Of a stretch of DNA of 64,000 bases, positions 13,149-52,703 are shown piece by piece; the first letter of the stretch is position 1, and each line of letters begins with the position of its first letter. Made by a program: the position numbers and the translations under genes. The stretch is from Polyangiaceae bacterium. GTDB taxonomy: Bacteria > Myxococcota_A > Polyangia > Polyangiales > Polyangiaceae. A model generated the notes under the pieces. It had not been told where the DNA came from and made no database searches. It worked only from the letters and a program-made list of their open reading frames with translations. The stretch lies in NCBI GenBank assembly GCA_032229665.1, contig JAVTWR010000059.1, forward strand, positions 113,191 through 177,190, given 5' to 3'.

Positions 13149-13191
13149 GCTCACACTTGGGAGTGCGCAGGCGCCTTCGTCACGAAATCGA

Positions 13192-13827: not shown

Positions 13828-13868
13828 GGGCGGCATCTTGGCCCGGATTGCCCGGGGTGCAAGGCCGT

Positions 13869-14600: not shown

Positions 14601-15136
14601 GGGCGGGCCTCCTTTCGGCTCTCGCGCTTGACGGCTTCGCGGAACTCCTCGCGTGCGAGCCGCAGCCGCGAGTAGGCGGTGTTCACGGGGATCTCCAGGG
14701 CGGCGGCGATCTCGGCCATGGGGGTCTCGTCGAGCTCGTGCAGGATGAAGACGGCCTGGCGATCGGGGTCGATCTTCCCGATGGCGCGCTCGACGAGGTG
14801 CTGGTTCTGTTTCATCTGGAGGAGCCGGTCGGCAGAGGGCAGGGGATCGCTCTCTTCGGCCTCGGTGCCCATTACCTCCCGGCGATGACGGGCCAGGCGG
14901 CGGTAGTCGGAGGCGAAGCGAAAAGCGAAAGCGAAGAGCCAGGGGCGGATCGGCCGCGCCGGATCGTAGGTGCCGATGCGCCGGTACACCTCAAGGAACA
15001 CGTCGTGGGTGAGGTCCTCGAGATCGCGCTCCTGGACGCCCAGGCGCCGGAGCGAAGTCCACACGTAGGCGAACTCCGCCTCGAAGATTGCATCGAAGCG
15101 GGCCCGTTCGGACATGTCGACGAGCGCCGCGGCCAT
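14597..15136 (-). CDS. ECF (sigma-70 family group 4) RNA polymerase sigma factor, cassette A
   Basis: Region 2 (DLEDLTHDVFLEVYRRIGTYDPARPIRPWLFAFAFR) and region 4 HTH (ETPMAEIAAALEIPVNTAYSRLRLAREEF). Confidence 0.9.
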   Translation of the reverse strand: MAAALVDMSERARFDAIFEAEFAYVWTSLRRLGVQERDLEDLTHDVFLEVYRRIGTYDPARPIRPWLFAFAFRFASDYRRLARHRREVMGTEAEESDPLPSADRLLQMKQNQHLVERAIGKIDPDRQAVFILHELDETPMAEIAAALEIPVNTAYSRLRLAREEFREAVKRESRKEARP

Positions 15137-15195
15137 TGGGTTCGCAAGGTACTTGGGTCCAGCGCCGGGCGATCGTCAAAGAATCGGCGGGATCC

Positions 15196-16185
15196 TCAGA
15201 AAACCACCGACGGGCCCACGCCGAAGGCCGCCGATACCGGGGAGAGCGCGTAGATGCTGCGGCCGTTGAGGCGGAACTCGTAGGGCAAGAGGGGCACCGC
15301 CAGCTCCGCAAAGGGGCGAATGGTGAGATTCTTGAAGACGGGGATGCTGGCGGCGACTCGGGCGCCTACCGCCAGATAGAGCACCGCGTCCGAGCCGGGC
15401 CGCGTGACCTCCCGGGTCTCCGCCACCAGCGAGCCGAGAGTGCCGTGGGCGCAGAGCGCGAGGATCGACAGGCGAAAGCAGGGGGCGACGCCCACTTCGA
15501 GGAGCGAAGTGGCTACCACGCCGCCTTCGCTCGTGGAACGCGAGGCTTGGGCATCGAAGCGTCCGGTGAGCTCCGCCTGGAACGCGCCGTAGCGGAAAGC
15601 GCCGAAGATATCCGGGCCGAAGGCCACCGCGGGGGCCGCGCCGATGGACATGTGGAGCGCGAGGCCGGCCTCGAAGCCGCTATGCGTCGTGGGCCGCGGC
15701 GGAGGCGGAGGCTGGTCGCGAGGTGGGGCCGGGGCCTGTGAGGACGGGGGCGCGGGCGGGGGATCTGCGGGCGGCGCGGGCGGATCGGGCGGTGGGGCCG
15801 GCGGATCCGGGGGTGGCCGCGTGAGGCTCAGGGGATCGAGGGCGATGCTGATGGTGAGCGCCAGGGTGGAGGTGAGATCGCCGCAGTCGTCGCTCTTCGA
15901 CTGCAGCTCGCGATCGCCCCGCTCCTTGCTGTCGGCGTCGATGAGCTTCACGTGGGCCACGAAGCGGGAGCCGACCCGCCGGACGTCCACCGAGACCGCG
16001 TTCTCCGCCACCGGTCGGAAGGGATCGTAGCCGAGGCGCGCAGCTACCGCCTGCCGCAGCGAGGCCTCGTCGGCGCACGCGGCGGCGCCCTCTCCGCGCA
16101 CGTAGGTGAGCTTGGCGGTGGGCGTTGCCGAGGCCGTCCGCGCGAAGAGCAAGAAAGGGAGAAGGACGAGCGCCGTGCGTCGCAT
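15196..16185 (-). CDS. secreted protein: two-Cys N-domain, Pro-rich linker, predicted small C-terminal beta-barrel (cassette A)
   Basis: Signal MRRTALVLLPFLLFARTASA (start 16185). PPPDPPAPPPDPPAPPADPPPAPP linker. The last ~150 aa show alternating hydrophobic/small residues and end ...GVGPSVVF (terminal Phe). Paralogs at 19251 and 49532. Confidence 0.6.
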   Translation of the reverse strand: MRRTALVLLPFLLFARTASATPTAKLTYVRGEGAAACADEASLRQAVAARLGYDPFRPVAENAVSVDVRRVGSRFVAHVKLIDADSKERGDRELQSKSDDCGDLTSTLALTISIALDPLSLTRPPPDPPAPPPDPPAPPADPPPAPPSSQAPAPPRDQPPPPPRPTTHSGFEAGLALHMSIGAAPAVAFGPDIFGAFRYGAFQAELTGRFDAQASRSTSEGGVVATSLLEVGVAPCFRLSILALCAHGTLGSLVAETREVTRPGSDAVLYLAVGARVAASIPVFKNLTIRPFAELAVPLLPYEFRLNGRSIYALSPVSAAFGVGPSVVF

Positions 16186-16231: not shown

Positions 16232-17263
16232 CTACAAGATGGTCTTCGCGCAGCGGAATCCGGTGGTGGAACGAGGTGACCGTACCGGCTGGATCTCGGA
16301 CCAGGTGGTCTGCACCTGCTCGAGGTAACCCCAGTAGCCCGCGCCGCGCACGAGCTTCTCCGAGGTCCTTAGCGATGCCTCGCGGTCGGTGCCGGGGAAG
16401 TCGTCGGGCAGGGGATCGGTTCCGAAGGATCCGAAAGGGGCCGAGCTCCACACCCACTCGATGAGGCTTCCCGCCATGTCGTAGACGCCATCGCGGGAGA
16501 TGTCGCCGGGCGTGGCGAGCACCGGCTTGGGGAACCCGCAGCCGTTCTGGCCCTGACGAAAGTCGCCGCCGAGGCCGAAGAGCGCGTGCGCGCAGTCGGG
16601 CTCCGGCGTGTCACCCCACACGTACTTGCGACTCTGGCCGCGGCCGCTGGCGATGTACAGCCACTCCACGTCGGTGAGCAAGCGCATGCCGCGGAAGTAG
16701 CAGACGGCGACTGCCTGCGGATAGTTCACGCAGTTCACCGGCAGCTCGTCGATACCCTGCGTGTATGTTGCACCAATGCCGGTGCTGAGATCGCTGCAGG
16801 TGCGGTACCCATCCTCGGCCACGTAGGTGCTGTCGAGGGCGTACCAGCGCATGGTCTCCTGGTAGGGGCCACCGGGCTCGAGGGAGCACGTGCCGCTCGG
16901 GCAGGGCTCCGGCTTGCCCGCCTCGACCCAGGCGCGAAACTGCTTCACCGTCACCTCGTGGGTGTCGACGTAGAAGTCGTGGGTCAGTCGCACCGGGGCC
17001 AGGTCGGAGCCGCCGGACCGGTAACGGAACTTGTAGGCGAAGGAGCCGGCGGGAATGCGCACCGTCTCGGGGATGACGCCGCTGCTGCCGCTGGAACCGC
17101 TGCTGCCGCTGCTCCCACTCGATCCGCTGCTCCCACTCGATCCGCTGCTGGCTCCGGCCTCGGTGCCGCCGTCCACGGTGCGGCGATCGCCGAGGTCCTG
17201 AAGACCAATGCAGGATGCAACGACCGCGGTGGCGCCCAACAGGAGGAGGCGCGCGCGCGTCAC
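16232..17263 (-). CDS. FGE-sulfatase (SUMF1/EgtB/PvdO) domain lipoprotein (output gene of cassette B)
   Basis: Lipobox LLLLGATAVVASC and an (SSG)8 linker. THEVTVKQFRAWV, NCVNYPQAVAVCYF, GVYDMAGSLIEWVW and a ...FRCAK end are typical of the FGE-sulfatase fold. ATGA overlap with the upstream anti-sigma. Confidence 0.8.
   Translation of the reverse strand: MTRARLLLLGATAVVASCIGLQDLGDRRTVDGGTEAGASSGSSGSSGSSGSSGSSGSSGSSGVIPETVRIPAGSFAYKFRYRSGGSDLAPVRLTHDFYVDTHEVTVKQFRAWVEAGKPEPCPSGTCSLEPGGPYQETMRWYALDSTYVAEDGYRTCSDLSTGIGATYTQGIDELPVNCVNYPQAVAVCYFRGMRLLTDVEWLYIASGRGQSRKYVWGDTPEPDCAHALFGLGGDFRQGQNGCGFPKPVLATPGDISRDGVYDMAGSLIEWVWSSAPFGSFGTDPLPDDFPGTDREASLRTSEKLVRGAGYWGYLEQVQTTWSEIQPVRSPRSTTGFRCAKTIL
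17081..17155. repeat. Ser-Gly trinucleotide-type repeat tract, including a perfect 2 x 18-bp unit (gctgctcccactcgatcc at 17108-17143)
   Basis: Read directly. Encodes SSGSSGSSGSSGSSGSSGSSGSSG on the minus strand. Confidence 0.85.
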
Positions 17264-18027
17264 GGGGCCCCCAGGGCGGCGTCGATCTGTGGCAGGAGCA
17301 CGCTCTGAGGATAGCTCTTTCGGAAGCGCGCGGCGAAGGTCCGGGCCTCGGCGGTGCGCCCCTGGGCTGCGAGCGCCAGAATGCGCAGACCCTCGCGCTC
17401 TTCCCGGAGCTGCCCCTGGGGAAACTCCCGCTCGTGGCGGCTCACGGCGCTCAGGGCGGCGTCCGCGTGGCCGCGGGCGACGCCGGCACGCGCTGCATCG
17501 ATGAGCTCTCGTTCCCGGGCGAGATCGCTCTTGGCGTCGCTGGTCACCGAGGCGGTGGCGGTGGTGGGGGGGGCAGTGGTGGGCGCGGCGCTGGTGGAAG
17601 CCGAGGCGGAGGCGCTGGCGATGCCAACGGGGATCATCGTGGTGCTCGGAGCCGGAGCCGCGGGCAGGTACACCGTGATCGTCGGCGCCGGGACGGCCAT
17701 GGTGCGATCGACGGCGACACCTGCGCCCGTGCCCACCGCGAACGTGGTGGCGATGACCGCGGCGAGCTTGGCGCCGCCGAGCGCTGCACCTGCACCCGCA
17801 CCCGCGCCGGCACCCGCAGGCGGCGCTGCGCCACCGGGACCGGAGCCGCCGTCACCTCCATTGTGGCCTCCGCCGGTGCCGTCGGCACCGAAGCCCAGCG
17901 TCGGGCCGAGCGCGGCCTCGAGCTTGGCCATCACACGGCCGGACAGCTCGGGCTGGGCGCCGATGGCGCTGCGCTCCTCGTCGAGGAGCTCCCGCGCGAG
18001 ATCCGAGAGCGGTTCCAGGTCGCTCAT
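17260..18027 (-). CDS. membrane-anchored anti-sigma factor (cassette B)
   Basis: ATGA overlap with the sigma gene at 18024-18027. Gly/Ala-rich spacer, TM (KLAAVIATTFAVGTGAGVAV). Conserved C-terminal HEREFPQGQLREEREGLRILAL...RFRKSYPQS. Confidence 0.65.
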   Translation of the reverse strand: MSDLEPLSDLARELLDEERSAIGAQPELSGRVMAKLEAALGPTLGFGADGTGGGHNGGDGGSGPGGAAPPAGAGAGAGAGAALGGAKLAAVIATTFAVGTGAGVAVDRTMAVPAPTITVYLPAAPAPSTTMIPVGIASASASASTSAAPTTAPPTTATASVTSDAKSDLARERELIDAARAGVARGHADAALSAVSRHEREFPQGQLREEREGLRILALAAQGRTAEARTFAARFRKSYPQSVLLPQIDAALGAP

Positions 18028-18551
18028 GCTCTCCTCCGTCGTTGGCCGAGTCGTGCGGCGTGCTCTTCGAACTCGGCGCGCGCGGTGCGCAGGCGCGAGT
18101 ACACGGTGTTGAGGGGGATGCCGAGCATCTCGGCCATCTCCGGCGCGTCGAAGCCTTCGAGATCGTGCATGACGAAGACATCGCGGCGATCGTCATCCAT
18201 CTTGTCGAGGGCAGCGAGCGCGAGCGTACGCGCCTGCCCGGTGACGGCGGCATCTTCCGGTGAGGCTTCGCGGGCGACCACGTCCTCGCCCTGCTCGCTG
18301 GCGGCTTCGCGCCGCTTGCGCCGGTAGTTCGCGGCCATCCGGAAGGCAAAGCCGAAGAGCCACGGGCGTATCGGGCGCGCCGGGTCGAAGTCGCTCCACT
18401 TGCCGTGCACCGCCAGGAACGTCTCCTGCGCGGCGTCCTCGAGATCGCCTTCACGAACCCCGAGCCGGCGCAGCGTGCGACACACGTAGCCGAGCTCCGC
18501 GGCGAACATCGCCCGGAACGCCGCGAGCGCGTTGGGCGTCGACGGAGGCAT
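18024..18551 (-). CDS. ECF sigma factor, cassette B
   Basis: DLEDAAQETFLAVHGKWSDFDPARPIRPWLFGFAFR (region 2) and EMAEMLGIPLNTVYSRLRTARAEF (region 4). Confidence 0.9.
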   Translation of the reverse strand: MPPSTPNALAAFRAMFAAELGYVCRTLRRLGVREGDLEDAAQETFLAVHGKWSDFDPARPIRPWLFGFAFRMAANYRRKRREAASEQGEDVVAREASPEDAAVTGQARTLALAALDKMDDDRRDVFVMHDLEGFDAPEMAEMLGIPLNTVYSRLRTARAEFEEHAARLGQRRRRA

Positions 18552-18659
18552 CGGGCCGATGGTAGTCCGGAAATCAGCATCGCTTCTCGCGGTTTGTGCC
18601 GCGGCGGCGAATCCGTCGGAAATTCGGCCCTCGGACCAGCCCGAGGTGCGATGGTGTCG

Positions 18660-19229
18660 CTATCGCGCGACGGCCACGAACACCGGCTCGGTGGCGTTGC
18701 CATTGCCGGTGGCGCGCCGGAACCCCGCATCGCGCACCAGGTTGCGCTCGGCGAGCACACCGAGCACGTTGGCGCCGCTGGCAAAGCCCAGGGAAACGAG
18801 GTGCGCGTCGAGCTGGCGTGCGATGACGCCCTTGCTGCCTCGGCTCACCGCGAACGCGATGGCCTGCTCCAACTGCACCGCGCTCACCACCGGTGCGGCC
18901 GGGGTCGCTTTCGGCAGCTTGTTCGTGCGCGCGGCCTTGGGAGCTTTGGGGGCGACTGCCTTGGGGGCGACGGCCGTTCGGGCCTTGGGGGCCGCGGCTC
19001 GCGGCGTCGCCTTCGGAAGCGCCACGGGTGCGGGGGCCTTCGCGGCCTTGCGGGCCTTCGGGCTTCGTTCGGTGGACCGCGCCTTGCCGACGACCGCGCT
19101 CAGCTCCGTGAGGGTGATGGCCTCGATGGTCGAAAGAACATCGCGGTTGAGCTGGTTCACGAGACGGTCGAGCGCTTCCCGGAAGCTTTCCATGAGGTCG
19201 ACATACTCCGTAACCCCGGGCCCGCGCAA
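18660..19229 (-). CDS. histone-H1-like Lys/Ala/Pro-repeat protein with a globular C-terminal domain
   Basis: Central KARKAAKAPAPVALPKATPRAAAPKARTAVAPKAVAPKAPKAARTNKLPKA tract. Start could be MESFREAL at 19193 instead. Lies between the barrel-like gene and the sigma gene of cassette B. Confidence 0.6.
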   Translation of the reverse strand: MRGPGVTEYVDLMESFREALDRLVNQLNRDVLSTIEAITLTELSAVVGKARSTERSPKARKAAKAPAPVALPKATPRAAAPKARTAVAPKAVAPKAPKAARTNKLPKATPAAPVVSAVQLEQAIAFAVSRGSKGVIARQLDAHLVSLGFASGANVLGVLAERNLVRDAGFRRATGNGNATEPVFVAVAR

Positions 19230-20291: not shown

Positions 20292-20386
20292 GCTGCATTG
20301 CGTACCCTTTTCGGGACCCGTTTGCGAAATGATTCGCGGCCGCACTTTTCTTCGACGGAACGCCGCGGCGCCGACAATCCCCGGGC

Positions 20387-22060
20387 ATGAAGCCGACCTT
20401 GCTTTGCCTCTTCGCGGCGACCCTCGCCGGTTGTTCTCTCTTGCCCATGATCCAGACCGGAGGCGCCGCCGCCGGCGGCTACGATGGCGACGAGTGCAAC
20501 GAGGTGCGGCAGACCGAGGCCCAGGCCCAGGAGGCGCACGGAAGTGGCTCGGTGGAGGTCGCCAAGACGCCGCGAGAGCGCGCCCTCGTGGCCCTGTGCC
20601 CGGAGCTGCCGTTCGACGCTCACGACGCCGCCGGGCGCGGCTACGCCGGCACACGCTACCAGCGGCGATCGCTTCCCCGGCCCGAGGACATTCACGCGGA
20701 CTTCGATCTCCGGCATCCGACCATGCTCGACGTCACGTCGCTCATGTTCGCCGTGGTGCAGCCGGGGCGAGATCGCCGGCATTTGCACGGCCACACCGGT
20801 CCGCTCAAGATCGAGAAGCCCTTCGGCAACGAGCGCGCGGAGCGCGAGGAAACGGCGGTGGGCATGGCCGCGGTGTACGCCAGCTTCCTCGACGACGGCG
20901 CCCTCGATCGCGAGCTCGCGGCCACGCAGCTCCCCGCCGAGGCGCGGCAGCACTACAAGGCGCAGGTGCAGGCCGCGAAGCAGAACGTGGACGCGCTGCT
21001 CGGCGCCATGACGCCCACCGTGCGCAAGGTCGTCTACGAGATTCCGCTGCACATCGCGCAGGACCTTCGCAAGGAGTACGAGGCCAAGAAGAACTTCGGC
21101 GCGCGCCTCGACGTGCTGAGCGCCCAGGCCGACGAAGCCCGCAAGGGCGGCGGCAACCCCTCGAAGGTCGCGCAGGAGCTGACGCAGCTCCGGAGCGACG
21201 TGGTCACCGTGTGCGGGGCCACCGAGGAGTGCACGTACCACCCGCTCTACGCCGAGATCACCCACGAGCTCGCCACCCTCTACGTGGCCACCAAGCAGGT
21301 GGACCTGGCGCGCGCCGAGAGCGCTCTCCTGACGCGCAAGGACTCCATGAAGCGCACGTTCCAGCCCGCCGTCTACGCCGCGCAGTACGAGGCCGGTGAG
21401 CGGTCCACCAAGGCGCTCCAGGCGAAGAAGTCGGCGAGCAAGCTCGACCCCAAGCTGGCCAAGGCCATGGACGCCGACGATCCGGTGAGCTTCTCGTTCG
21501 CCGATTTCTTCCGGGCTGGCTCGAGCATGCCCTTCATCGCTTCGGCCTTGGGGGGCGACGGCAGCCCCACGCCCGTCTCCGGATACGTGCAGGCGGTGTC
21601 GCGCAAAGGCGACAAGAGCCTCGTGGAGTTCAAGACCGAGTACCAGAGCGTCGACGTGCCGACCAACTGCTACACCACCGGCCGCATCGCGCGCATCCAG
21701 TCGGACGGGCGCATCGAGTACGAGGAGAGTTGCCAGTACCGCACCGAGCGTCAGGCGCTCCCCAAGCCGGAGCCCATCCTGATACCGAGCCGCGAGGCCG
21801 CGGGCATCAAGGCCGGCGAGCTCGTCCGCATCTGGGGCGCCAAGGACGGGGTGGTGGAGCAGGTGCACGAGACCAAGAACGGCGGCCTCGTGCTGGTGCA
21901 GCTCCGGGGCGATCGCGTGCGCGGCGAGAAGGCCGAGCGCCCGCAGAAGAGCTCGGCGGGCACCAGCGCAGCGCCGAAGGATCCGCGGCCGGCCGATGCC
22001 CCCGCGGCACCCGCTTCCACGGGGCCGATTGCGCGCGAAGCGGGTCGTCTCGCTCGGTGA
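20387..22060 (+). CDS. hypothetical lipoprotein (557 aa)
   Basis: MKPTLLCLFAATLAGC lipobox. Long helical/charged middle, Pro/Ala-rich tail. Good GC3. Confidence 0.7.
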   Translation: MKPTLLCLFAATLAGCSLLPMIQTGGAAAGGYDGDECNEVRQTEAQAQEAHGSGSVEVAKTPRERALVALCPELPFDAHDAAGRGYAGTRYQRRSLPRPEDIHADFDLRHPTMLDVTSLMFAVVQPGRDRRHLHGHTGPLKIEKPFGNERAEREETAVGMAAVYASFLDDGALDRELAATQLPAEARQHYKAQVQAAKQNVDALLGAMTPTVRKVVYEIPLHIAQDLRKEYEAKKNFGARLDVLSAQADEARKGGGNPSKVAQELTQLRSDVVTVCGATEECTYHPLYAEITHELATLYVATKQVDLARAESALLTRKDSMKRTFQPAVYAAQYEAGERSTKALQAKKSASKLDPKLAKAMDADDPVSFSFADFFRAGSSMPFIASALGGDGSPTPVSGYVQAVSRKGDKSLVEFKTEYQSVDVPTNCYTTGRIARIQSDGRIEYEESCQYRTERQALPKPEPILIPSREAAGIKAGELVRIWGAKDGVVEQVHETKNGGLVLVQLRGDRVRGEKAERPQKSSAGTSAAPKDPRPADAPAAPASTGPIAREAGRLAR

Positions 22061-44799: not shown

Positions 44800-45153
44800 T
44801 CAGTAGCAGTAGCAGGTCGCGGTTGGTGGCCTTCCTGGATTGTACGCGTTGAGGGTGAGCTCGCCGACGGAACGATTGCAGGTAGTGGTGCACCACGTCG
44901 TGCACTGTTGAGCGGTGGGGGGTGCTTTGCCGAACTTTCTGGTGCCGTAATACCAATACATGAATCCGTCGCCGCGCGATTCGCAGTCCGCGTATTGCAC
45001 GACCGCGGTCGGCTGCATCTCCGAGGTTCCGTCCGACGCCAGCCCATCGATCGGTGCGGTTGCCTCTTCCTCGGAGGAGCTGGATGAGGCGCACGCGCTC
45101 GAGAGTAGTACGACGATACCTGCCAACAAAATAGAGCTCTTTGTCCGAATCAT
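44800..45153 (-). CDS. small 6-Cys lipoprotein, family shared with 52344..52703
   Basis: MIRTKSSILLAGIVVLLSSAC lipobox. The mature C-terminal ~70 aa, AVVQYADCESRGDGFMYWYYG...CTTWCTTTC...AYNPGRPPTATCYCY, aligns with the 52344 gene. Confidence 0.65.
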   Translation of the reverse strand: MIRTKSSILLAGIVVLLSSACASSSSSEEEATAPIDGLASDGTSEMQPTAVVQYADCESRGDGFMYWYYGTRKFGKAPPTAQQCTTWCTTTCNRSVGELTLNAYNPGRPPTATCYCY

Positions 45154-45198: not shown

Positions 45199-46530
45199 TC
45201 AGAAGGAGGCTGTGGCGGGCCACACGCACTTGCCGGCATTGCAGGTGCCACCCTTGAAGAGGCTCGAGCACTCGGCGTTCGTGGTGCAACCCGGGTTGCA
45301 CGAAAGCGGGACCTCGGGGTATCCGTCGCGGAAGATGGGCGGTTGTGCGCAGAAGAGGCCGACCGTCGCGCAGTCGTTCTTGAACAGCTTCGGGGAGCCC
45401 TCGTTCGAGTCACCGCACCGGACGATGGTCTCGCCGACGCAATCGCCTCGCGAGGAGACCAGACCGCACGCCGCGCGTGAGGCAATGAAGTGCCGGGCGT
45501 CGACACCGATGGCAGCCGCCGAGAGGGGCATGAGGAACGGGTTGAACGGTTTCGGGCGGGGGCCAAGATACCGCCACTTCGCGGCCACCGCGAGCACCGT
45601 CAGCTTCCCGTTCACCCGTCCGAGAATCGGCGCGCCCGTGTCAGCGCCCGTCGCGCTGGCATCGCACGGTTTGCCGCCGAGAACGGCGTCGGCGTCGGTC
45701 AGCGGCTTGTTCCACTCCGCGAGCTGCTCCGCCTTGTAGGCCGGATCCTTGGCCAGGTTCGGGTCGCCATCGTACTTGGCGGCGTCGGCCAGGTAGGCCT
45801 CGAACGTCGGGTACTGCACCGCCCAGTAGTGGCCTCCCTCCCGCGCCTGGAGCGTCATCGAGCCGATTCGTCGCTCGCCGGCCTTCGCGGGCGGCAGAAC
45901 GGACGCGTCCTGCGTCGGGTCGAGCATGGGGCGGTCGGACTGGTCACCGAAGCCGACCAGGGCGAAGGTCTTGTTCAGGTCGGACGCCTTGAACTGGCCA
46001 ATCGGTAGCGGCGTGACGTTGGTGACAGGCTTGCTCAGAATGCCGATCGCCAGCGCGCCTCCGCTGTCCGACGCCGCGAGAGGCTGCCCCTCCAGCGCAT
46101 ACATGTTCGTCCAGCCGCTGATCTCGATGCTCGCGGTAGGCGCCATGCTGTTCGCTCCAAGACGGAACGTGTGCTTCTTGCCCTTGACGGAGCTGGGGCC
46201 GTCGATGCCCAGGAAGCAGTTGGGGTTCGTGAGGATCCGGTCTGGGGCGATGAGTGTCGCCGTGCAGAAGAGCTTGGGCGCGCCGGTCTTCGCATCCGGT
46301 CCGTAGATCGTTCCGATCGCGTCGAAGATGTGCGCGTTCGCGGGGGCGCCGCCAATCAACGCGTCGAGCGACGTGTCGCTGCTCTCCTCCTCGACCGGAG
46401 TCGTGCCGCACGCAGTCGCGCCCAGCATCGTAACGAGCGTCGCAACCGAGAGCCGCGAGAGGGGGGATAGCTTGCGGAGTGTGCCACCCATGGTGGTGGC
46501 GATAGTCATCTTCGAGTAAATCGTGTTCAT
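45199..46530 (-). CDS. trypsin-fold (S1-like) lipoprotein with a substituted catalytic triad and a Cys-rich C-terminal domain
   Basis: LIGGAPAN...LFCTATLIAPDRILTNPNCF (TAAHC becomes TNPNC), GGALAIGILSKPV (no Asp102 equivalent), CDASATGADTGAPILG (GDSGGP becomes ADTGAP). Signal ...LVTMLGATAC. Start at 46530 (alternatives 46509, 46491). Confidence 0.7.
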   Translation of the reverse strand: MNTIYSKMTIATTMGGTLRKLSPLSRLSVATLVTMLGATACGTTPVEEESSDTSLDALIGGAPANAHIFDAIGTIYGPDAKTGAPKLFCTATLIAPDRILTNPNCFLGIDGPSSVKGKKHTFRLGANSMAPTASIEISGWTNMYALEGQPLAASDSGGALAIGILSKPVTNVTPLPIGQFKASDLNKTFALVGFGDQSDRPMLDPTQDASVLPPAKAGERRIGSMTLQAREGGHYWAVQYPTFEAYLADAAKYDGDPNLAKDPAYKAEQLAEWNKPLTDADAVLGGKPCDASATGADTGAPILGRVNGKLTVLAVAAKWRYLGPRPKPFNPFLMPLSAAAIGVDARHFIASRAACGLVSSRGDCVGETIVRCGDSNEGSPKLFKNDCATVGLFCAQPPIFRDGYPEVPLSCNPGCTTNAECSSLFKGGTCNAGKCVWPATASF

Positions 46531-46808
46531 GGTCTGTAAGTTCCTACTTGTTGTTGCCGCAAACAGAACGATGCGTGTGGAGCGCATCTATGTCTGCGGT
46601 GCTTGCTGCCGAGTGTGATCTGCACTAACTGTGCCCAAACGTGGTTGCGAGTGCGAAAGCAATTTGTCGCGGTGTCTTGGGACGTTGACTGGGCGCGATC
46701 GGTCCGATCGCTACCCTGGCAGCGCGGAGCGCTCACACGTTGCCATCATGGATTCGAGGGCGGGAGACTTCACCCGCCAGGGAGTGAGGCGCTTCGACAA
46801 GCTTCAAA

Positions 46809-48089
46809 TCAAAGCTGGCTTTTGGAGACCAGCTCACTCGGCGTTGCCTTGCCGACCGCCAACTGTCCGTAGAAGTTGTAGCCCCAGCAATATGTATTCC
46901 CGCTGGCGGCGAGCACGCACGTGTGGCTAGCCGAGCTGCTGGCGGCCATCCGCGTCACCGATTCTCCGGCCGGCAGAGCGATACGCGTCGGCGGTCGCAC
47001 CAGCGCGCGATCTGCCGTGTCGCCGACCGGAAGCCCGAGCTCGCCCTCCACGTTGCGCCCCCAACAGTAGATCTCACCCGCGGTCGAGCGCGCACACGCG
47101 TGGACTGCCGCGCGCGCGATGTCGTCGACGACGACGCCCGCGGGCATTGCCACGAGTGCGGGGGCGGTGACGTCTTCGGCGGGGGCGGAGCGCGCAGCGC
47201 TGGAGCGCCAGCAGTACACGCTCCGGGTGGCCACCGTGAGCGCGCAGGTGTCGGCGACGCCGGATGATACGGCCAACACTGCCTCGTCGCCGGGAAGGGT
47301 GACGCGGGTGGGCGTTGCGGGGGCGAGCGACAGGACCGTACCGCCGGCGTCGCGCCGCACGCCGCCCCAGCAGAAGAGCGCGCCCGAGGTGTCGACGGCG
47401 CAAGTGCCATCGGAGCCCGCGGAGACGTGCGCGATAGCGCTCGCTCCCGCGATGGTGATCTTGGTAGGCGTCGGGCTGGCCGCGAGGCTGGCATCCGCGA
47501 GCTGGCCGCGCTCGTTCTTGCCCCAACAGAACAGCTCACCGCGCGCGACCGCACAGGTGTGCACCTCGCCCAACGAGACCTCCGAGACGGCGCCAGATCC
47601 CGGAAGTGTAACGATCGTTGGCACGCGGGGTGCCGGGACGGCAGGACCGCCCCAGCAATAGAGCTGGCCACTTCCGTTGATGGCGCAGGTCTGGATGCCG
47701 CCCACGAACAGCTTGGCGACCGGCGCACCGGGGACGAGCACAGGCGCGGGTACGGTGTAGTTGGTGGGGGAGATCGGCGTGCCGGTGCCGATCTGGCCAT
47801 AGAAGTTCCGGCCCGCACAAAGGACTTGCCCGGCGCGGAGCGAGCAACTGTGGGTAGACCCCACGCCGATGTCGTCACCGAGGTACGCGTGCCCGCCGTC
47901 ACCCGTTGCGCTCGAATCGAAGGGCCCCGCATCCCCGTTGCGAGGCGGCACGGAAGGAGCAGCGGCATCGGCATTGGCATCGGGCGCTTCGGTCCCTAAA
48001 GCGATATCGATGTTGCCGTTGCAGGCTACGGAGGTGGCAGCAGAGCCGAGCGCGCACAGCGCGATAGAGGCGAAGGACCTGGGGTTCAT
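46809..48089 (-). CDS. secreted RCC1-repeat (seven-bladed propeller-type) protein (output gene of cassette C)
   Basis: ATG at 48089 after AAGGAG. Signal MNPRSFASIALCALGSAATSVAC. Repeats LCAGRNFYGQIGTG, LYCWGG, LFCWGKNERGQLAD, LFCWGG, VYCW, IYCWGRNVEGELGL, TYCWGYNFYGQLAVG. Confidence 0.8.
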   Translation of the reverse strand: MNPRSFASIALCALGSAATSVACNGNIDIALGTEAPDANADAAAPSVPPRNGDAGPFDSSATGDGGHAYLGDDIGVGSTHSCSLRAGQVLCAGRNFYGQIGTGTPISPTNYTVPAPVLVPGAPVAKLFVGGIQTCAINGSGQLYCWGGPAVPAPRVPTIVTLPGSGAVSEVSLGEVHTCAVARGELFCWGKNERGQLADASLAASPTPTKITIAGASAIAHVSAGSDGTCAVDTSGALFCWGGVRRDAGGTVLSLAPATPTRVTLPGDEAVLAVSSGVADTCALTVATRSVYCWRSSAARSAPAEDVTAPALVAMPAGVVVDDIARAAVHACARSTAGEIYCWGRNVEGELGLPVGDTADRALVRPPTRIALPAGESVTRMAASSSASHTCVLAASGNTYCWGYNFYGQLAVGKATPSELVSKSQL

Positions 48090-48186
48090 GAGAGGAGCTC
48101 CTTGGAAGTCGTCGGCGCGAGGATGAAGGGAGGTGCGCGACTCGGTGGGTGAGTGCGCGACGGACTCGACTCTCGTCAAAGAATCG

Positions 48187-48918
48187 TCACGGCATCGCGC
48201 ATGCGTCTCGAATGCTCGGTCCGAGCGCCGAGCGCGGATAGGTGGTGATGAAAGCGTCCGCCAGCTTGTGGGCTTCACCCCCTTTGCCTGCCTGGCACAG
48301 CGTGAGCGCGCGCTCCGCGTCGCGTTCCTCTGCCAGCACCCCATGGGGGAAGCGACGCGCATGCTCGGCGATCAAAGAAAGCGCTCTCGACGTTGCTCCC
48401 TCGCGGCGAGCCGCGCGCGCTTCGCGCACGAGCCTGGTCTCTACGGTGAGCGAGCCTTCCACTGACGCCGGGGGGTCGACGTTGGGGCCGCCGCATCCGT
48501 TGCACATGCGTGCCGTTGAGTCCGGTGGACGTGCTTCCGAGATCGCCGCCGTCGCCCGACGAAGTGTGGGTACTTCCCCGAACGTGGGGCGGTTGAGGGG
48601 CCCGGCCGCGCCGGAGCTCGGTGCGGCGGCGAGCGAAGGGTCGTAGGGGTGAGACGGCTCCAAGGCGACCCCGAGGGTGAGGAGGGCAGCCACGAGCTTG
48701 GCCAGGACTGGGGCGATTCCGCCTCCCCCGGCGGCCGCGCCCCCAACGGGTGTACCTCTTGCGAATGTGGGGCCGGTGGGCTCCGTAACAGCGCCCGCCA
48801 ACGAGCTTCCGCACTGCGCGGCGAGGGCACGCCGCACGCGCCGCCGATCTTCGTCGCTGGGCGAGAGAGCCGCCCGCGCTGCTGCGAGCAACGCCTCGTC
48901 GTCCGGTGTGAGGCTCAT
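48187..48918 (-). CDS. membrane-anchored anti-sigma factor (cassette C)
   Basis: ATGA overlap with the sigma gene. TM (IAPVLAKLVAALLTLGVAL). C-terminal HARRFPHGVLAEERDAERALTLC...AFITTYPRS matches the motif of the other two anti-sigmas. Confidence 0.65.
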   Translation of the reverse strand: MSLTPDDEALLAAARAALSPSDEDRRRVRRALAAQCGSSLAGAVTEPTGPTFARGTPVGGAAAGGGGIAPVLAKLVAALLTLGVALEPSHPYDPSLAAAPSSGAAGPLNRPTFGEVPTLRRATAAISEARPPDSTARMCNGCGGPNVDPPASVEGSLTVETRLVREARAARREGATSRALSLIAEHARRFPHGVLAEERDAERALTLCQAGKGGEAHKLADAFITTYPRSALGPSIRDACAMP

Positions 48919-49523
48919 CCCGCCCTCCAGGTGTCGCGCAGCCTATGCCGCTGCGTCGCGAGTGCGAACGCGCTGCGTGCCAGTCGCAAGCGCGAGTACA
49001 CGGTGTTCACGTTTTCTTGGAGCATCTCCGCGATCTGCTTGACGGGAATCTGCTCGAGCTCGGCAAGTACGAACACCTCTCGTTGTTCATCGTCGAGCGC
49101 GTCGAGGATGCGAGTCACCTGGCGCACAGCCTGCGCCGCAGCGGCCGCATCTTCGGGGCTGGGCTCGTTCGCGTCTCCCAGTGTGTCGGGGTCGACCTCG
49201 CCGTCGGCGTCGTTCGAGTGCAGGTGCCGTCGCTCGCTTCGCCGGTAGTTGCGCACCACGTTGCGTACGATTCCGTAGAGCCACGTTCGAAAGGTCGCGC
49301 GTCCCTCGAACGTTGCCAATCGTTGGTGCACCACGACGAATATCTCCTGGGTCGCGTCGTCGAGCGCGGCCTGGGGCACGCCCAGACTGCGCACGCTCCG
49401 CCAAACGAAGCCGAAGTGGGCCTGGTAAATCTCGTCGAAGTAGGGCGCCGGACTGGCCACGGATGCTTCGACCGGCGAAGCGGCCAACGGAATCATCTGC
49501 GTCTGTGGGTGTCGGGCGAGCAT
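48915..49523 (-). CDS. ECF sigma factor, cassette C
   Basis: ALDDATQEIFVVVHQRLATFEGRATFRTWLYGIVRN (region 2) and VKQIAEMLQENVNTVYSRLRLARSAF (region 4). Start at 49523 or 49496; the listed ORF to 50450 is an over-extension. Confidence 0.85.
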   Translation of the reverse strand: MLARHPQTQMIPLAASPVEASVASPAPYFDEIYQAHFGFVWRSVRSLGVPQAALDDATQEIFVVVHQRLATFEGRATFRTWLYGIVRNVVRNYRRSERRHLHSNDADGEVDPDTLGDANEPSPEDAAAAAQAVRQVTRILDALDDEQREVFVLAELEQIPVKQIAEMLQENVNTVYSRLRLARSAFALATQRHRLRDTWRAG

Positions 49524-49531
49524 GCCTTCCG

Positions 49532-50581
49532 TCAAAGAATCTTCAGTTCCAGGCCCAGCGCGGCGACGAATGCGAACGGGGAGGGGCGCGTGATGGGGAG
49601 GCTGCCCTCGGGCGTTGCCACCACGAAGCGCGGCGTCTCGAGAGCCCCTGTGGCCCGGGCGCCGATGCGCAGGCGTAGGCGCCCGGACAAGGGCACGAGG
49701 GCAATGAGCTCTCCGCCCAAGCCGGCCCACGTTGCACCTTCGTTCCGGGGCCGCGCGGTGCCGAAGCCAACGCCGTACGCGTTCACCAGCTCCGCTGCGA
49801 AGCAAGGGCCCATCCGCAGCTCCCGATAGCCGAACAACGCGCATGCGCGTCCGCCCGCCGTCGACATGCGAAACTCGCCGCCCTTCCAAGGCGCACCGTC
49901 GACACCCACCCCGCGCGAAAAGAACTTCGCGAGCTCTATCTCCACCCGAAGCGCGGCGAGCTCGGCCCAAAGACCGAACGCCGCTCCCCCCGCGGGGGAA
50001 GGGACGCTTCCGATGCGGAATAGGGTCGTCGCGGCGGCACCGAACGTCGGTGCCGGGCGCTTTTGCCGTCTCCCCGCGGCAGGCGCCGTTTGGGGCAGGT
50101 CGGCGTGGGCCGTCGTCGTTGCCGTGGCTGCGGTCGTGGCCGATGCGGCTGGCCCGGGAGGTGGACTGGCTAGCGGAGCCGGGGCCGAGAAGGCCGGCGT
50201 GTTCGGGGGCTTGGCGTTGCCGTCCACCGTGAGGGCGATAATCAGGGCTGCTGCCGCCGAGACCTCTCGACAGGTCGTTCCCGAGAACGATCGCGTCGAA
50301 CGACTGCTCCCCGACTGGAGCTCGAGCGCGACACGAAACAGTCCACGGCCGCGCTGCGCCACCACGCCGCGCACAGCGACCTCCTTGCGGGGCCCTTCGG
50401 GGCCGAGAATGCGCCGAATCTCCTCGCGCATGTCCGATTCGGAGGGGCAACCCTCTTCGAGCGCCGGCGTCCAGCGCAGGCTCACCGGATCGCTCGATTG
50501 GGCGTGCGCACTACCAACCGCGAGGATGAGCGCGGTTGCCGTGAGGGCAACGATACGGAGAAGGTCCCTTCCAAGGTGCAT
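49532..50581 (-). CDS. secreted two-Cys domain / Pro-Ala-rich linker / predicted beta-barrel protein (cassette C paralog)
   Basis: Start MHLGRDLLRIVALTATALILAVGSAHA at 50581. N-domain CPSESDMREEIRRILGPEG...CREVSAAAALIIAL parallels the other two. The C-terminal ~150 aa show an alternating pattern. Confidence 0.6.
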   Translation of the reverse strand: MHLGRDLLRIVALTATALILAVGSAHAQSSDPVSLRWTPALEEGCPSESDMREEIRRILGPEGPRKEVAVRGVVAQRGRGLFRVALELQSGSSRSTRSFSGTTCREVSAAAALIIALTVDGNAKPPNTPAFSAPAPLASPPPGPAASATTAATATTTAHADLPQTAPAAGRRQKRPAPTFGAAATTLFRIGSVPSPAGGAAFGLWAELAALRVEIELAKFFSRGVGVDGAPWKGGEFRMSTAGGRACALFGYRELRMGPCFAAELVNAYGVGFGTARPRNEGATWAGLGGELIALVPLSGRLRLRIGARATGALETPRFVVATPEGSLPITRPSPFAFVAALGLELKIL

Positions 50582-50707: not shown

Positions 50708-51577
50708 TCAAGGAAGCGTCACGACGAAGTCCGCTGCAAGGTTGGCCACGAAGCTCCCACTCGTCCGAACGTGGAGGGAGCGACCGTCCGCGCTGACGCT
50801 CACGACCTCCATGGTGCGCGGCGAGAGCGGAAACGTACCGGCCCCGCCGGAGACGGTGAGGAACCCCAGCTTCGGGTCTGCGGGGTCGACGACGCCCGCG
50901 GTTCGGGGAATGCGCAGCTCCCACCGGTGCGCCGGGTAGTCGTTGGAGTAGGGCATCCCGAAGACCAGGCGAAGGCTCTCCGGGGTGATCTCGTCGATGA
51001 GCGCGTAGCTTCCGGAGCCTTCGTCGACCGGCACCCGAGGGAACCATTGCTTGCGTGAGACGTTGTTCCAGCTCCAGGAAAGGACATCGAGGCTGCTGGG
51101 CAGCGCCTGGGTGCAGTCGGCACTGCAGCTGTCTCGCGACGAGGTGTTTCCGTCGTCGCATGCCTCGCCCATCTGCACGACTCCGTCGCCGCAAACCGCC
51201 GGCTGCTTCGTGCAAACTCTCTTGTCGCCGTCCGCTGGGGTACAGTCCCATCCGGTGGGGCACATTGCCGCGGTGCAGTCGGCCGAGCAGTACGTCTCGT
51301 AGGAGGTTTGCTTCGTCGTCGGGTTCGTGACCGGATGGGTGCCGTCGTACACGCACGTTCCGAGCGTACACTTCGCGTTCGCGACGGCCGACACGTGCCC
51401 TGGTGACCCCGCGAGCTCGCAGTAGCCACCGAGATCCCCGGCGGCAAGGGTGGGTGGCGTCGCGCCTCCGTCGCCAGTGGGGCTGGTAAGCTGGCTTCCG
51501 GGGCCCGAGGCGGAGGAAGCGCACGCCACGAGTGGTGAAGTGATGCCCAGAGCGAGGATACAAAGGAACTTCTTCAT
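50708..51577 (-). CDS. lipoprotein with a Myxococcus cysteine-rich repeat (CGDG...CDDGN)
   Basis: MKKFLCILALGITSPLVAC lipobox (start 51577). VCGDGVVQMGEACDDGNTSSRDSCSADC matches the TIGR02232-type repeat (recalled). C-terminal ~130 aa beta-rich domain. Confidence 0.7.
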   Translation of the reverse strand: MKKFLCILALGITSPLVACASSASGPGSQLTSPTGDGGATPPTLAAGDLGGYCELAGSPGHVSAVANAKCTLGTCVYDGTHPVTNPTTKQTSYETYCSADCTAAMCPTGWDCTPADGDKRVCTKQPAVCGDGVVQMGEACDDGNTSSRDSCSADCTQALPSSLDVLSWSWNNVSRKQWFPRVPVDEGSGSYALIDEITPESLRLVFGMPYSNDYPAHRWELRIPRTAGVVDPADPKLGFLTVSGGAGTFPLSPRTMEVVSVSADGRSLHVRTSGSFVANLAADFVVTLP

Positions 51578-51850
51578 GCCTCTTCGAACGTGCATGCAGG
51601 CGGAGTATTCAACGAAATATGTGGTTGTGGACCGGAATCCGATCTTGCGCGCCTGGGTGGATCGCCGGGCACTCGGTTCGATGATGGTTGCCTGCGCGCG
51701 CTGCGCACCTCCGCGGGCGCGATCTGTCTCATCGCACCCCCCTCGACCGTGGGAAAGTACCGCCAAGTATGGCGTGAGCGTCGCGGAGTTTGCGGTGGCA
51801 TGAATGGTGCTCGGTCTAGCGTGGACCAGGAACACCCCAAAGAAAGTTCG

Positions 51851-52289
51851 ATGCGCAAGCTTTCCAAGTACATCGTCGTCTCTGCCCTCGTTCTGCCCAC
51901 TATCTTCGCTTGTGCCGTTGCGCAGGAGGGCAGCCGAAGCGACTGCGATTGCCGTGGTGGGATCCATCGAGGAGCGCTCGGTCTGGGCCGAACGTATCGC
52001 GGTTGCGACCAGCGTCTCGCAGTGGCGAGAAACTCTTGCGGAGCACCTGGCTTCTCTTCGGACTGGGCTTCTACAGGCGGTCTTCGTACCGACGGACGAA
52101 TGCGCCGTGCGAGGGCTATGCCTGCTCAGTCAAGCCGTGCCCGTCGTGGTGGCGACCGCCCACCTCTGGGATATTCTCTGTGCGGAGCGGTATGACAGCT
52201 CAGCCTTCGTGGATGCCCACGATGACTTTGCCGTCGCTCTCGCAGTCGCATTTCAGCGCCACGGCGCCGTCCGCGCGGTGCAAAGCTAA
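51851..52289 (+). pseudogene. possible frameshifted small lipoprotein gene (signal peptide in one frame, GC3-rich body in another)
   Basis: ATG at 51851 gives MRKLSKYIVVSALVLPTIFACAVAQEGS. GC3 bias in that frame decays after about 51950, while the frame of ORF 51804..52289 becomes protein-like (VVGSIEERSVWAERIAVATSVSQWRETLAEHL...FQRHGAVRAVQS*). Alternatively the body is an independent 125-aa gene starting at GTG 51912. Confidence 0.3.
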
Positions 52290-52343: not shown

Positions 52344-52703
52344 ATGAAAGTGAAGTATATCGTAGCGGGTTCGTGTCGGATGATGGCTGCTGCGTGCGGT
52401 GTGGTGTTGTTCGTCGGTTGCGCGTCGTCCGCCGCCTCCGAGGAGAACGCGCCGGCGGAAGGTCTCGCATCGTTCGCGCCCTCCGAGGTGCAGCCCAATG
52501 CGGTTGTGCAGTACCAGAACTGCGCCACGCGCGGCTACGGATTCAAGTATTGGTACTATGGCGGCAGCTACGGCGCGGCTCCTTCCGCTGCGGAGTGCAC
52601 GAGCTGGTGCACGGGCACCTGCAGACGTTCGGGAGGGCGGTTCAATCCTGCCGCCTACAATCCCGGCTACCCGGCCACGGCAACCTGTTACTGCACGCCG
52701 TAG
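52344..52703 (+). CDS. small 6-Cys lipoprotein, paralog of 44800..45153
   Basis: AAGGAG RBS and ATG at 52344. Signal ...AAACGVVLFVGC. AVVQYQNCATRGYGFKYWYYG...CTSWCTGTC...AYNPGYPATATCYC. Confidence 0.7.
   Translation: MKVKYIVAGSCRMMAAACGVVLFVGCASSAASEENAPAEGLASFAPSEVQPNAVVQYQNCATRGYGFKYWYYGGSYGAAPSAAECTSWCTGTCRRSGGRFNPAAYNPGYPATATCYCTP

Follow-up and report, generated by a model that had tools for sequence, protein, structure and literature searches.

Introduction

The locus studied here lies in a stretch of 64,000 nt of DNA from a Polyangiaceae bacterium (hereafter the window, meaning the whole stretch that was analysed), in which four genes on the minus strand follow one another in the order barrel, extracytoplasmic function (ECF) sigma factor, anti-sigma factor and RCC1-repeat lipoprotein. 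It raises the question of why the first three of these genes should be kept together while the fourth differs from copy to copy, and what such a set could do. A preliminary description of the DNA had implied that the same triad occurs twice more in the window, and had read it as a portable regulatory cassette attached to different exported proteins. Both further copies (modules A and B, the present locus being module C) were found where that description placed them, with an FGE-sulfatase and a lipoprotein as their fourth genes, and the portable triad with a differing fourth gene holds in the window as well as in dozens of Polyangia and Nannocystis loci. We consider it rather probable, at about 0.6, that the locus belongs to a large and so far undescribed family of ECF-sigma modules in Polyangia and Nannocystineae, each a self-activating, split trans-envelope signalling unit. 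All functional statements in this study were made in silico, and promoter, topology and interactions are predictions.

To our knowledge, almost none of the inputs of the ECF sigma factors of such myxobacteria has been described. Sorangium-, Polyangium- and Nannocystis-type myxobacteria, with genomes that are among the largest of bacteria, carry 70-80 ECF sigma factors each (bioRxiv 10.1101/2019.12.11.873521).

Distribution of the triad

Loci were searched by the C-terminal domain of the anti-sigma factor only, independently of the barrel, in public genomes and metagenomes, and 11 genome loci (all from metagenome-assembled genomes of Myxococcota) and 31 metagenome loci were obtained. With three profile hidden Markov models (HMMs), the barrel gene was recognised directly 5' of the sigma gene, followed by the anti-sigma gene on one strand, in about 23 of the approximately 27 loci with enough upstream DNA, and the sigma/anti-sigma pair was conserved in all informative loci. 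The exceptions to the order are L005, L010 and L012, in which no barrel was detectable, and one locus whose barrel gene is nearby on the opposite strand. Loci reached through the barrel displayed an adjacent ECF sigma gene in eight cases out of eight, among them the complete genomes of Nannocystis punicea (CP114040, module at about 10.332-10.336 Mb), Polyangium aurulentum and Sorangium sp. So ce134, as well as a metagenome-assembled genome of Minicystis. Judged by this conserved gene order, the triad is a conserved portable unit across Polyangia and Nannocystis genomes, and is widespread among soil myxobacteria.

Two departures from the usual arrangement were also observed. L005, L010 and L012 retain the stretch that in other loci codes for the barrel C-terminus and contains the stop and the -35 block (…GCTTCGCTTTGAGTGACGGAT…), and the syntenic L004 still has the barrel, which suggests that the barrel was lost and the promoter kept. 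In L020 (612-1346), L024 (1320-2306) and L026, a further barrel-family gene stands directly after the anti-sigma gene, in place of the lipoprotein; this may be a module in tandem that lacks the fourth gene, or else a different order of the genes.

Homology and ancestry of the three copies

Within the window, the sigma factors of A, B and C are 40-46% identical, and the anti-sigma factors align significantly only over their last ~90 residues (E=2e-14). Barrel C is barely (E=0.023) or not significantly similar to barrels A and B by BLASTP, so that its homology with them could not be derived from the window alone and profile methods were needed. HMMs of the barrel and of the anti-sigma factor, built without any window sequence, scored all three copies clearly, at 193, 261 and 329 bits for barrels C, A and B, and at 146, 118 and 96 bits for anti-sigma factors C, A and B, respectively.

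Neighbour-joining trees of sigma factor, barrel and anti-sigma factor have the same shape. In the concatenated neighbour-joining tree, built on 729 columns with 100 bootstraps, A and B belong to a clade of 100% bootstrap support together with copies from four other sources, B being closer to those copies than to A (68%), and C is placed elsewhere, near L019. The preliminary description had staked its reading in part on the three sigma/anti-sigma pairs grouping together phylogenetically, and on this half it did not stand, as the window copies were monophyletic in 0 of 100 replicates. Its statement that copy C is the most diverged of the three agrees with both the alignments and the trees. A recent tandem triplication is excluded by the same trees, and the three window copies are, on this phylogenetic evidence, old paralogs of a co-evolving triad.

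The barrel protein and its family

An HMM of five barrel sequences was compared with 1.84 billion representatives clustered at 50% identity, and 18,073 cluster representatives were matched at E<=1e-3, of which 1,359 passed E<=1e-30; almost every match covers the full length, at 320-370 aa. By comparison, a word-indexed search using barrel C alone returned three proteins only. Every named member of the family (from Minicystis, Polyangiales, Nannocystis, Polyangium and Sorangium) is recorded as "hypothetical protein", barrel C has no match in Pfam or NCBIfam and no sequence match in the PDB, and no Pfam domain was detected among 50 family members. Three residues of the N-terminal domain (C45, R97 and C104) and two of the barrel (C247 and C260) are invariant in these 50 members, in line with the earlier remark that copy C keeps the two cysteines of its N-domain.

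The AlphaFold2 model of barrel C, built from the 50-sequence alignment, has a mean predicted local distance difference test score (pLDDT) of 85.4, with the barrel part mostly above 90. A signal peptide with predicted cleavage at AHA|Q is followed by a predicted periplasmic N-domain of about residues 33-119 with the topology beta-alpha-beta-beta-beta-alpha, which holds C45 and C104, then by a disordered Pro/Ala-rich linker (residues 120-178 of the model) and finally by a modelled closed beta-barrel of 8-10 strands (residues 179-347), which holds C247 and C260. Against the PDB, Foldseek matched the barrel to the transmembrane domain of OmpA, NspA, Ail, OmpX and OprF with template-modelling (TM) scores, normalised to the target, of 0.6-0.75 and E=1e-7 to 1e-5, the best figures being those to OmpA (E=1.2e-7, TM-target 0.75). 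The signal peptide, the closed antiparallel barrel of 8-10 strands with alternating hydrophobic residues and the hydrophobic C-terminus of small OmpA/OmpX-type barrels are thus all present by prediction, and by sequence the protein belongs to none of the OmpA_membrane, OMP_b-brl, Ail/Lom and OmpW families of Pfam/NCBIfam. The N-domain modelled alone reached a pLDDT of 91.6 and weakly resembles the N-terminal domain of periplasmic TolB and the HPF/YfiA fold, the latter of the same topology (TM ~0.55-0.6, E ~1e-3); in the model this is a likeness of fold class, with no function implied. The earlier wording "barrel-like" for gene 1 is upheld as a prediction by AlphaFold2 and Foldseek, and the product is predicted to be an outer-membrane protein with a periplasmic N-terminal domain.

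The sigma and anti-sigma factors

Sigma-C matches Sigma70_r2 (PF04542, 7.5e-13) and Sigma70_r4_2 (PF08281, 2.8e-12) in Pfam and TIGR02937 (2.4e-25) in NCBIfam. With sigma2 and sigma4 domains only and 193-202 aa, it has the size (about 170-220 aa) and domain content of ECF (group 4) sigma-70 factors, and its nearest solved structures are E. coli RpoE (1.2e-14) and CnrH (2.1e-14). The true start of sigma-C is likelier to be the ATG at 49496 (M10) than that at 49523, since the predicted -10 element falls within codons 4-6 of the long form; the HMM envelope of the sigma family also begins at 49496. This possible start, like the 189-aa gene of module A described below, was absent from the preliminary description.

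We infer an anti-sigma function for gene 3, whose product in module C has no match in Pfam or NCBIfam and no known anti-sigma domain. The alignment of 20 homologs displays a conserved N-terminal segment of ~45 aa (predicted cytoplasmic), followed by a Gly/Ala-rich stretch, one transmembrane helix, a variable and unalignable Pro-rich periplasmic linker, and a conserved C-terminal TPR-like domain of ~85 aa (HARRFPHGVLAEERDAERAL...; HAR-FPHGVLAEERDAERAL…). Against the PDB, the profile of this C-domain is marginally similar to the TPR of BamD (E=1e-3) and to CpoB (E=1.9e-3). The CNGCGG segment singled out earlier is indeed present at residues 139-144 of anti-sigma-C, yet it has no detectable significance, lying within the variable Pro-rich linker without a counterpart in the other homologs; a metal or redox site at this position was ruled out on the same two grounds. 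Many anti-sigma genes end in a proline codon followed by the stop (CCGTGA).

A two-part motif, predicted to be a promoter

The upstream regions of the sigma genes of all loci were aligned, and a two-part motif was recognised 5' of most of them, consisting of about TTTCCGTGACGGAT followed, 19 nt counted from TGAC, by a hexamer such as CACTCA, CACCAG or CAAGTA. The exact 12-mer GATTCTTTGACG occurs three times in the 64 kb, always on the minus strand and always within modules: across the barrel-C stop, 8 nt before the annotated ATG of sigma-C; in the gap between barrel B and sigma B; and directly after the anti-sigma-C stop. A position weight matrix (PWM) restricted to the two blocks was built from 16 sigma-upstream sites of other loci only, with the sequences weighted and the spacer allowed to vary by +/-1. 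Its scan of the window returned seven sites of at least 12 bits, with the sigma-C site as the best; five are at module junctions and the two others are probably due to chance. In shuffled windows the mean was 2.2 sites of at least 13 bits, and 0 of 100 reached the observed seven.

At sigma-C, the -35 block is ATTCTTTGACGGAA, whose TGA is the barrel stop codon, and the -10 block is ACACCCAC, with 9 nt from the -10 hexamer to the ATG at 49496. The site upstream of the RCC1 gene begins 3 nt past the anti-sigma stop, with ATTCTTTGACGAGA as -35 and GCACTCAC as -10, and leaves a leader of ~58 nt with AAGGAG before the ATG; its -10 matches that of sigma-C in 6 of 8 positions. Among other loci, the 260 nt past the anti-sigma stop contain a site of at least 12 bits in 8 of 36 cases, compared with 16 of 1615 control windows (Fisher p=1.3e-8). 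The -10 block is also more alike within a locus than between loci (permutation p=1.5e-4; 1.9e-3 in a conservative subset), the pairs in the window being ACACCCAC and GCACTCAC in C, CCAAGTAC and CCAAGTGT in B, and ACAAACC and ACAATCC in A. In the Minicystis locus L056, which was found via the barrel and was absent from the training set, sites of 28.7 and 23.5 bits occupy the same two positions, and both carry CCCAAAT.

The start codon lies 0-13 nt (median 9) past the -10 hexamer, so close that the sigma mRNAs are predicted to be leaderless or nearly so. The barrel gene ends on the TGA of the -35 block in most of the 27 junctions between barrel and sigma genes. From this fixed geometry and the locus-specific -10 variants, an autoregulatory two-part promoter of the sigma gene is predicted. 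The same predicted promoter type at sigma-C and at the RCC1 gene supports expression of the latter driven by the sigma factor, which is probably how the RCC1 gene is transcribed; to this extent the earlier statement that the sigma factor drives the RCC1 propeller gains support in silico.

Upstream of the barrel genes the picture is different. The preliminary description had proposed a search for an ECF-type promoter common to the barrel and the output genes; none was found upstream of the barrel genes of the window, and the motif stands instead upstream of the sigma genes and, in C, of the RCC1 gene. An exhaustive count of 5-mer/4-mer pairs in 23 barrel-gene upstream regions gave nothing above dinucleotide shuffles, and the PWM reached just 0.6-3.0 bits upstream of the three window barrel genes. 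The motif stands 5' of 5 of 23 barrel genes, none of them in the window. Because the motif sits between barrel and sigma factor, the window barrels are outside the predicted sigma-driven unit.

Two further observations concern the motif in other loci. Upstream of the sigma gene of L048 (3940-4060, +) there are three tandem units of ~33 nt, each opening with the -35-like GGATTCCGTGATGCGCTCGTG…, so that the repeat is a multiplied barrel-stop/promoter junction. In L031 (5524-7851) and L034, a second site (21-23 bits) stands before the gene of a TonB-dependent receptor that has a CarboxypepD_reg domain, and the same sigma family is therefore predicted to be able to drive a classical large outer-membrane receptor too.

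The fourth gene and its lipoprotein tag

The RCC1 protein of module C matches PF25390 (1.7e-45, 156 bits, cut-off 150) and contains six PF13540 and four PF00415 stretches, thus having the tandem RCC1 repeats and the RLD propeller of an RCC1-like protein. Its N-terminus carries a predicted lipobox …ATSVAC|NG, a low-complexity linker and the degenerate tag NIDIALG (CNGNIDIALG). Besides the FGE-sulfatase, the module B lipoprotein and the RCC1 protein of the window, the fourth genes elsewhere encode GH30, pacifastin/VWC/TIL repeats, PSCyt/PSD, PD40, MopE-like and conotoxin-like Cys repeats, a TonB-dependent receptor and a number of domain-less proteins. Even L019, the nearest relative of C, has a pacifastin/VWC lipoprotein and not RCC1. 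Where GltB or GAPDH follows the anti-sigma gene, these are probably mere neighbours.

Most true fourth genes encode lipoproteins that share a short N-terminal motif, C-x(1-9)-[DNS][LVI]G, followed by a low-complexity linker, for example CIGLQDLGD (A), CATRAVDLGAND (B), CGARALDLGG, CGGKVLDVG, CGDGPVNLGD and CDFFQDLGG. An automatic count placed the element [DNS][LVI]G within ~12 residues of the lipobox Cys in 7 of the 11 fourth genes; among the other predicted lipoproteins encoded in this DNA, the figure was 2 of 75 (p=2e-6). In A, B and several other loci, a 4-nt overlap couples translation of the fourth gene to that of the anti-sigma gene, and in C the fourth gene stands behind the predicted second promoter. 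Its lipoproteins, which had been regarded as "cargo", could equally be sensors.

Proposed mechanism and alternative explanations

Under the signalling reading, the N-terminus of the anti-sigma factor would hold the sigma factor at the inner membrane, and sigma-C, once freed, would transcribe its own sigma/anti-sigma pair, giving positive feedback through a nearly leaderless mRNA, together with the RCC1 lipoprotein gene. The barrel would be expressed separately from this sigma-driven unit, and its periplasmic N-domain would be the outer-membrane partner of the periplasmic TPR-like domain of the anti-sigma factor, the two together spanning the envelope. We infer this partnership from synteny, congruent trees and predicted topology, and by analogy with FecA-FecR (PMC11637429) and Dma (PMC10927553). 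The lipoprotein may be a variable input (a sensor docked at the barrel), an output, or a client of the barrel. A more far-reaching version, which we hold tentatively and would not presently favour, is that Polyangia possess a very large repertoire of split receptors, each made up of a dedicated small outer-membrane barrel with a disulfide-bonded periplasmic domain, an anti-sigma factor and a lipoprotein bearing the tag. The signal sensed would be set by the exchangeable domain of the lipoprotein (for example RCC1, FGE-sulfatase, PD40, Cys-knot repeats or GH30), docking to the barrel would be the role of the tag, and the -10 variant would insulate the systems from one another.

Several observations weigh against the signalling reading. 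The fold matches of the N-domain are weak (TM about 0.55-0.6, E about 1e-3), the TPR similarity of the anti-sigma factor is marginal (E=1e-3), and the tag of the RCC1 protein is only degenerate. The related loci L005, L010 and L012 keep sigma and anti-sigma factors with no barrel detected, and in several loci the next gene is a housekeeping gene (GltB, GAPDH) or another barrel gene (L020, L024). With respect to the promoter, a second site past the anti-sigma gene was present in only 8 of 36 loci at 12 bits or more (11 of 36 at 10 or more), the PWM is dominated by one related subgroup and misses sigma-A (7-10.6 bits), and the overlap of the -35 block with the barrel stop means that its conservation could partly be a coding constraint on the barrel C-terminus.

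This last point leads to the most sceptical explanation, namely that the barrel is a conserved neighbour only, that the "promoter" is conservation of coding sequence and translation start, and that the RCC1 gene is transcribed independently. The -35 block does overlap the barrel stop in most loci, and the CCGTGA ends of many anti-sigma genes mimic the motif, but the full motif also occurs away from stop codons (6-89 nt past the anti-sigma stop, 20 nt past the barrel B stop, and at 20347 on the other strand), its -10 half falls in non-coding DNA, keeps a constant distance and co-varies within the locus, and the congruent trees favour functional coupling; we regard this explanation as highly improbable. 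Congruence also bears on the possibility of an export device, in which the barrel serves to place the tagged lipoprotein in the outer membrane or to display it on the surface, functionally akin to Slam/type-11 secretion or to RcsF threaded through OmpA-type barrels, and the sigma/anti-sigma pair only times lipoprotein production. The tag just past the lipidated Cys, followed by a long disordered linker, is in the position of sorting signals such as the lipoprotein export signal (LES) of Bacteroidota (PMC10927553), the globular domains of the fourth genes are typical of extracellular modules, and the motif does precede 5 of 23 barrel genes. A folded 7-bladed propeller, however, cannot pass a barrel of 8-10 strands, the barrel is outside the sigma-driven unit in the window and in most loci, its tree follows those of the sigma and anti-sigma factors while the fourth gene is swapped even between close relatives (RCC1 in C, pacifastin/VWC in L019), and some modules have no fourth gene, making an export device unlikely in our estimation.

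A further possibility is an envelope-stress system resembling RpoE-RseA, in which the BamD/CpoB-like TPR domain of the anti-sigma factor would monitor the folding or assembly of its own barrel protein, or of outer-membrane proteins in general, and free the sigma factor on failure of assembly, with the fourth gene as a repair or accessory factor. RpoE is indeed the closest solved relative of sigma-C, the anti-sigma C-domain is weakly like the TPR of BamD, which binds outer-membrane-protein signals, and the barrel gene is predicted to be expressed apart from the sigma factor. A general stress sensor, on the other hand, is not expected to diversify into very many paralogs per genome that differ in barrel, in promoter variant and in a fourth gene unrelated to the others, and no RseA, RseB or DegS-type domain is present; such a role for the module appears very unlikely.

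Features of the window and genomic surroundings

The window has a G+C content of 65-72%, and its relatives are all Myxococcota, of Polyangia and Nannocystis type. The four open reading frames of module C (Table 1) occupy the coordinates and the strand given in the preliminary description. The sigma-C stop overlaps the anti-sigma-C start as ATGA, AAGGAG lies 8 nt 5' of the RCC1 ATG, and independent gene callers on three metagenome contigs with a near-identical locus agree on lengths of 349, 202, 243 and 426 aa.

Table 1. Genes and predicted promoter sites of modules A, B and C in the window
Feature	Position	Strand	Evidence or remark
Module C gene 1, predicted outer-membrane protein, 349 aa	49532-50581	-	AlphaFold2, Foldseek, family HMM 193 bits
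Predicted sigma-C promoter	49505-49540	-	PWM 24.3 bits; geometry like other loci
ECF sigma-C, 202 aa, sigma2 + sigma4 only	48915-49523	-	PF04542, PF08281, TIGR02937
Anti-sigma-C, 243 aa	48187-48918	-	20-homolog alignment; independent HMM 146 bits; ATGA overlap
Predicted second sigma-C-type promoter, upstream of RCC1 gene	48149-48184	-	PWM 16.7 bits
Module C gene 4, exported RCC1-repeat beta-propeller, probable lipoprotein, 426 aa	46809-48089	-	PF25390, PF00415, PF13540; N-terminus
557-aa lipoprotein gene after the plus-strand site	20387-22060	+	Without Pfam domain
Promoter-like site, divergent from barrel A	20347-20381	+	PWM 18.0 bits; ends 6 nt before ATG 20387
Module A barrel, GTG start as in ortholog L006	19251-20291	-	Independent HMM 261 bits; ortholog P0024 in GCA_048222645.1
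Module A extra 189-aa gene, between barrel A and sigma A	18660-19229	-	No Pfam; kept in L006
Weak candidate sigma-A promoter (AATTTCCGACGGATTC…CACAAACC)	18591-18624	-	Below PWM threshold, 7-10.6 bits
Sigma A	18024-18551	-	Pfam, alignments
Anti-sigma A	17260-18027	-	Alignments
FGE-sulfatase-domain lipoprotein, module A	16232-17263	-	Pfam; GTGA overlap; tag CIGLQDLGD
Module B barrel	15196-16185	-	Independent HMM 329 bits
Predicted sigma-B promoter	15149-15184	-	PWM 13.4 bits
Sigma B	14597-15136	-	
Anti-sigma B	13869-14600	-	Independent HMM 96 bits
Module B lipoprotein, tag CATRAVDLGAND	13192-13836	-	N-terminus
Second B-type promoter-like site, …CCCAAGTGT (cf. sigma-B CCCAAGTAC)	13153-13188	-	PWM 17.0 bits; -10 CCCAAGTG
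107-aa acidic lipoprotein gene, ATG 13148, 5 nt after second B-type site	12825-13148	-	Split in the list of open reading frames
268-aa gene without domains; start overlaps stop of 107-aa gene	12019-12825	-	

The extra protein of module A, which has no match in Pfam or NCBIfam, is rich in Lys, Ala and Pro in its middle part, in the manner of histone H1, and the syntenic L006 (GCA_048222645.1) keeps its gene in a version of 183 aa. With this gene standing between barrel and sigma promoter, A is the only copy in which the -35 block is clear of the barrel stop. The plus-strand site at 20347-20381 shares CGACGGA…ACAAwCC with the weak sigma-A site and may be a divergent target of sigma-A. After module B, a series of genes of 228, 110 and 268 aa recurs in L006.

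Module C is adjoined upstream by a gene for a protein with DUF4215 Cys-rich repeats (50708-51967, -), of a kind also found near the module in Nannocystis punicea (L052), and downstream by one for a secreted trypsin-like protein (45199-46587, -; weak PF00089). Two paralogous small Cys-rich lipoproteins in inverted orientation, of 117 aa (44800-45153, -) and 119 aa (52344-52703, +), bracket a block of ~7 kb with the trypsin-like gene, module C and the DUF4215 gene; they have …VVQY..C..RG.GF.YWYYG…C..WC.T.C.R…AYNPG.P.TATCYC in common and a weak defensin-like Pfam match (E=0.08). Between 46.5 and 51 kb, no sigma-70-type promoter was found and terminator-like sites were at no more than chance level, the Rfam search of 44-53 kb yielded no RNA family, and the search of a plasmid collection gave no match.

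Comparison with known systems

In its overall plan, the module is closest to cell-surface signalling (CSS) of the FecA/FecR/FecI and Pseudomonas type (PMC11637429, PMC5411451), which likewise combines an outer-membrane barrel bearing a periplasmic N-domain, a single-pass anti-sigma factor with a periplasmic C-domain and an ECF sigma factor, in clustered genes, with many paralogous systems per genome and a promoter specificity for each. The barrel of the module, however, is OmpA/OmpX-like with 8-10 strands and has no plug, TonB box or STN domain (Plug, TonB_dep_Rec and STN gave no match in 50 family members), whereas CSS employs a TonB-dependent transducer of 22 strands; the anti-sigma factor has a TPR-like C-domain and no FecR domain (no match to FecR, DUF4880 or DUF4974), and sigma-C is predicted to act on its own operon plus the gene of the lipoprotein rather than on that of the barrel. 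By sequence, CSS and the module are unrelated.

Dma of the Bacteroidota (PMC10927553) is similar in that an ECF anti-sigma system is in physical contact with the outer membrane by way of a beta-barrel and a linker that is disordered in the periplasm, and its regulon also includes uncharacterised lipoproteins (NigD). Dma is reported to be restricted to Bacteroidota, with ECF21 sigma factors (PMC10927553), whereas the module belongs to another phylum, and it fuses the anti-sigma N-domain and the barrel in one polypeptide. In the module these are separate genes, the barrel lying upstream of the sigma gene with a signal peptide and an N-domain of its own, and the anti-sigma factor ending in a TPR-like domain; no homology was detected between the two systems. 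The likeness to RpoE-RseA-RseB is confined to the sigma factor, which is nearest to RpoE and CnrH among solved structures, as no RseA N- or C-terminal domain and no RseB domain of Pfam/NCBIfam occurs in the module. In SigX-OprF (ECF102; PMC7826278), an ECF sigma gene again stands beside an OmpA-type barrel gene, but OprF is encoded after sigX and has an OmpA peptidoglycan-binding domain at its C-terminus, whereas the barrel of the module is upstream, bears its extra domain with a Cys pair at the N-terminus and diversifies together with the sigma factor.

The pairing of an outer-membrane barrel with a lipoprotein that has a short motif and a disordered linker past its lipidated Cys recalls RcsF with OmpA/C/F, Slam and LES. 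Slam is a 14-strand DUF560 barrel with an N-terminal TPR, encoded beside its lipoprotein substrate. The barrel of the module is smaller and gave no match to DUF560, so that only the adjacency to a lipoprotein is in common. The module tag, x-[LV]-[DN]-[LV]-G, is unlike LES (S-D/E3; LES is cited in PMC10927553). The module therefore lacks the defining features of CSS, Dma, RpoE-RseA and Slam, and its sigma factor is in itself an ordinary ECF sigma factor. In the searchable literature no description of the barrel family or of its link to ECF sigma factors was found, the main text of the ECF re-classification presents no Myxococcota group with an outer-membrane partner, and the sigma group may be partly described.

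What is new here, in comparison with these systems, is ECF signalling with a new outer-membrane partner, a defined predicted promoter and a lipoprotein tag. An orphan family of ~18,000 clusters (at 50% identity, without a Pfam domain) is now linked to a specific sigma/anti-sigma family, and a cognate promoter with locus-specific variants would make the local regulon of many orphan ECF sigma factors readable from sequence alone. The barrel, the anti-sigma TPR domain, the tag and the promoter are four directly testable parts, and mutually insulated sigma/promoter pairs could serve as orthogonal switches. If the barrel does signal, the module would represent a new route from the outer membrane to RNA polymerase in Gram-negative cells. 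On the more far-reaching version with split receptors, TonB-dependent CSS and Dma would be joined by a third outer-membrane-to-sigma architecture, in which the inputs, for the first time, would be modular lipoproteins.

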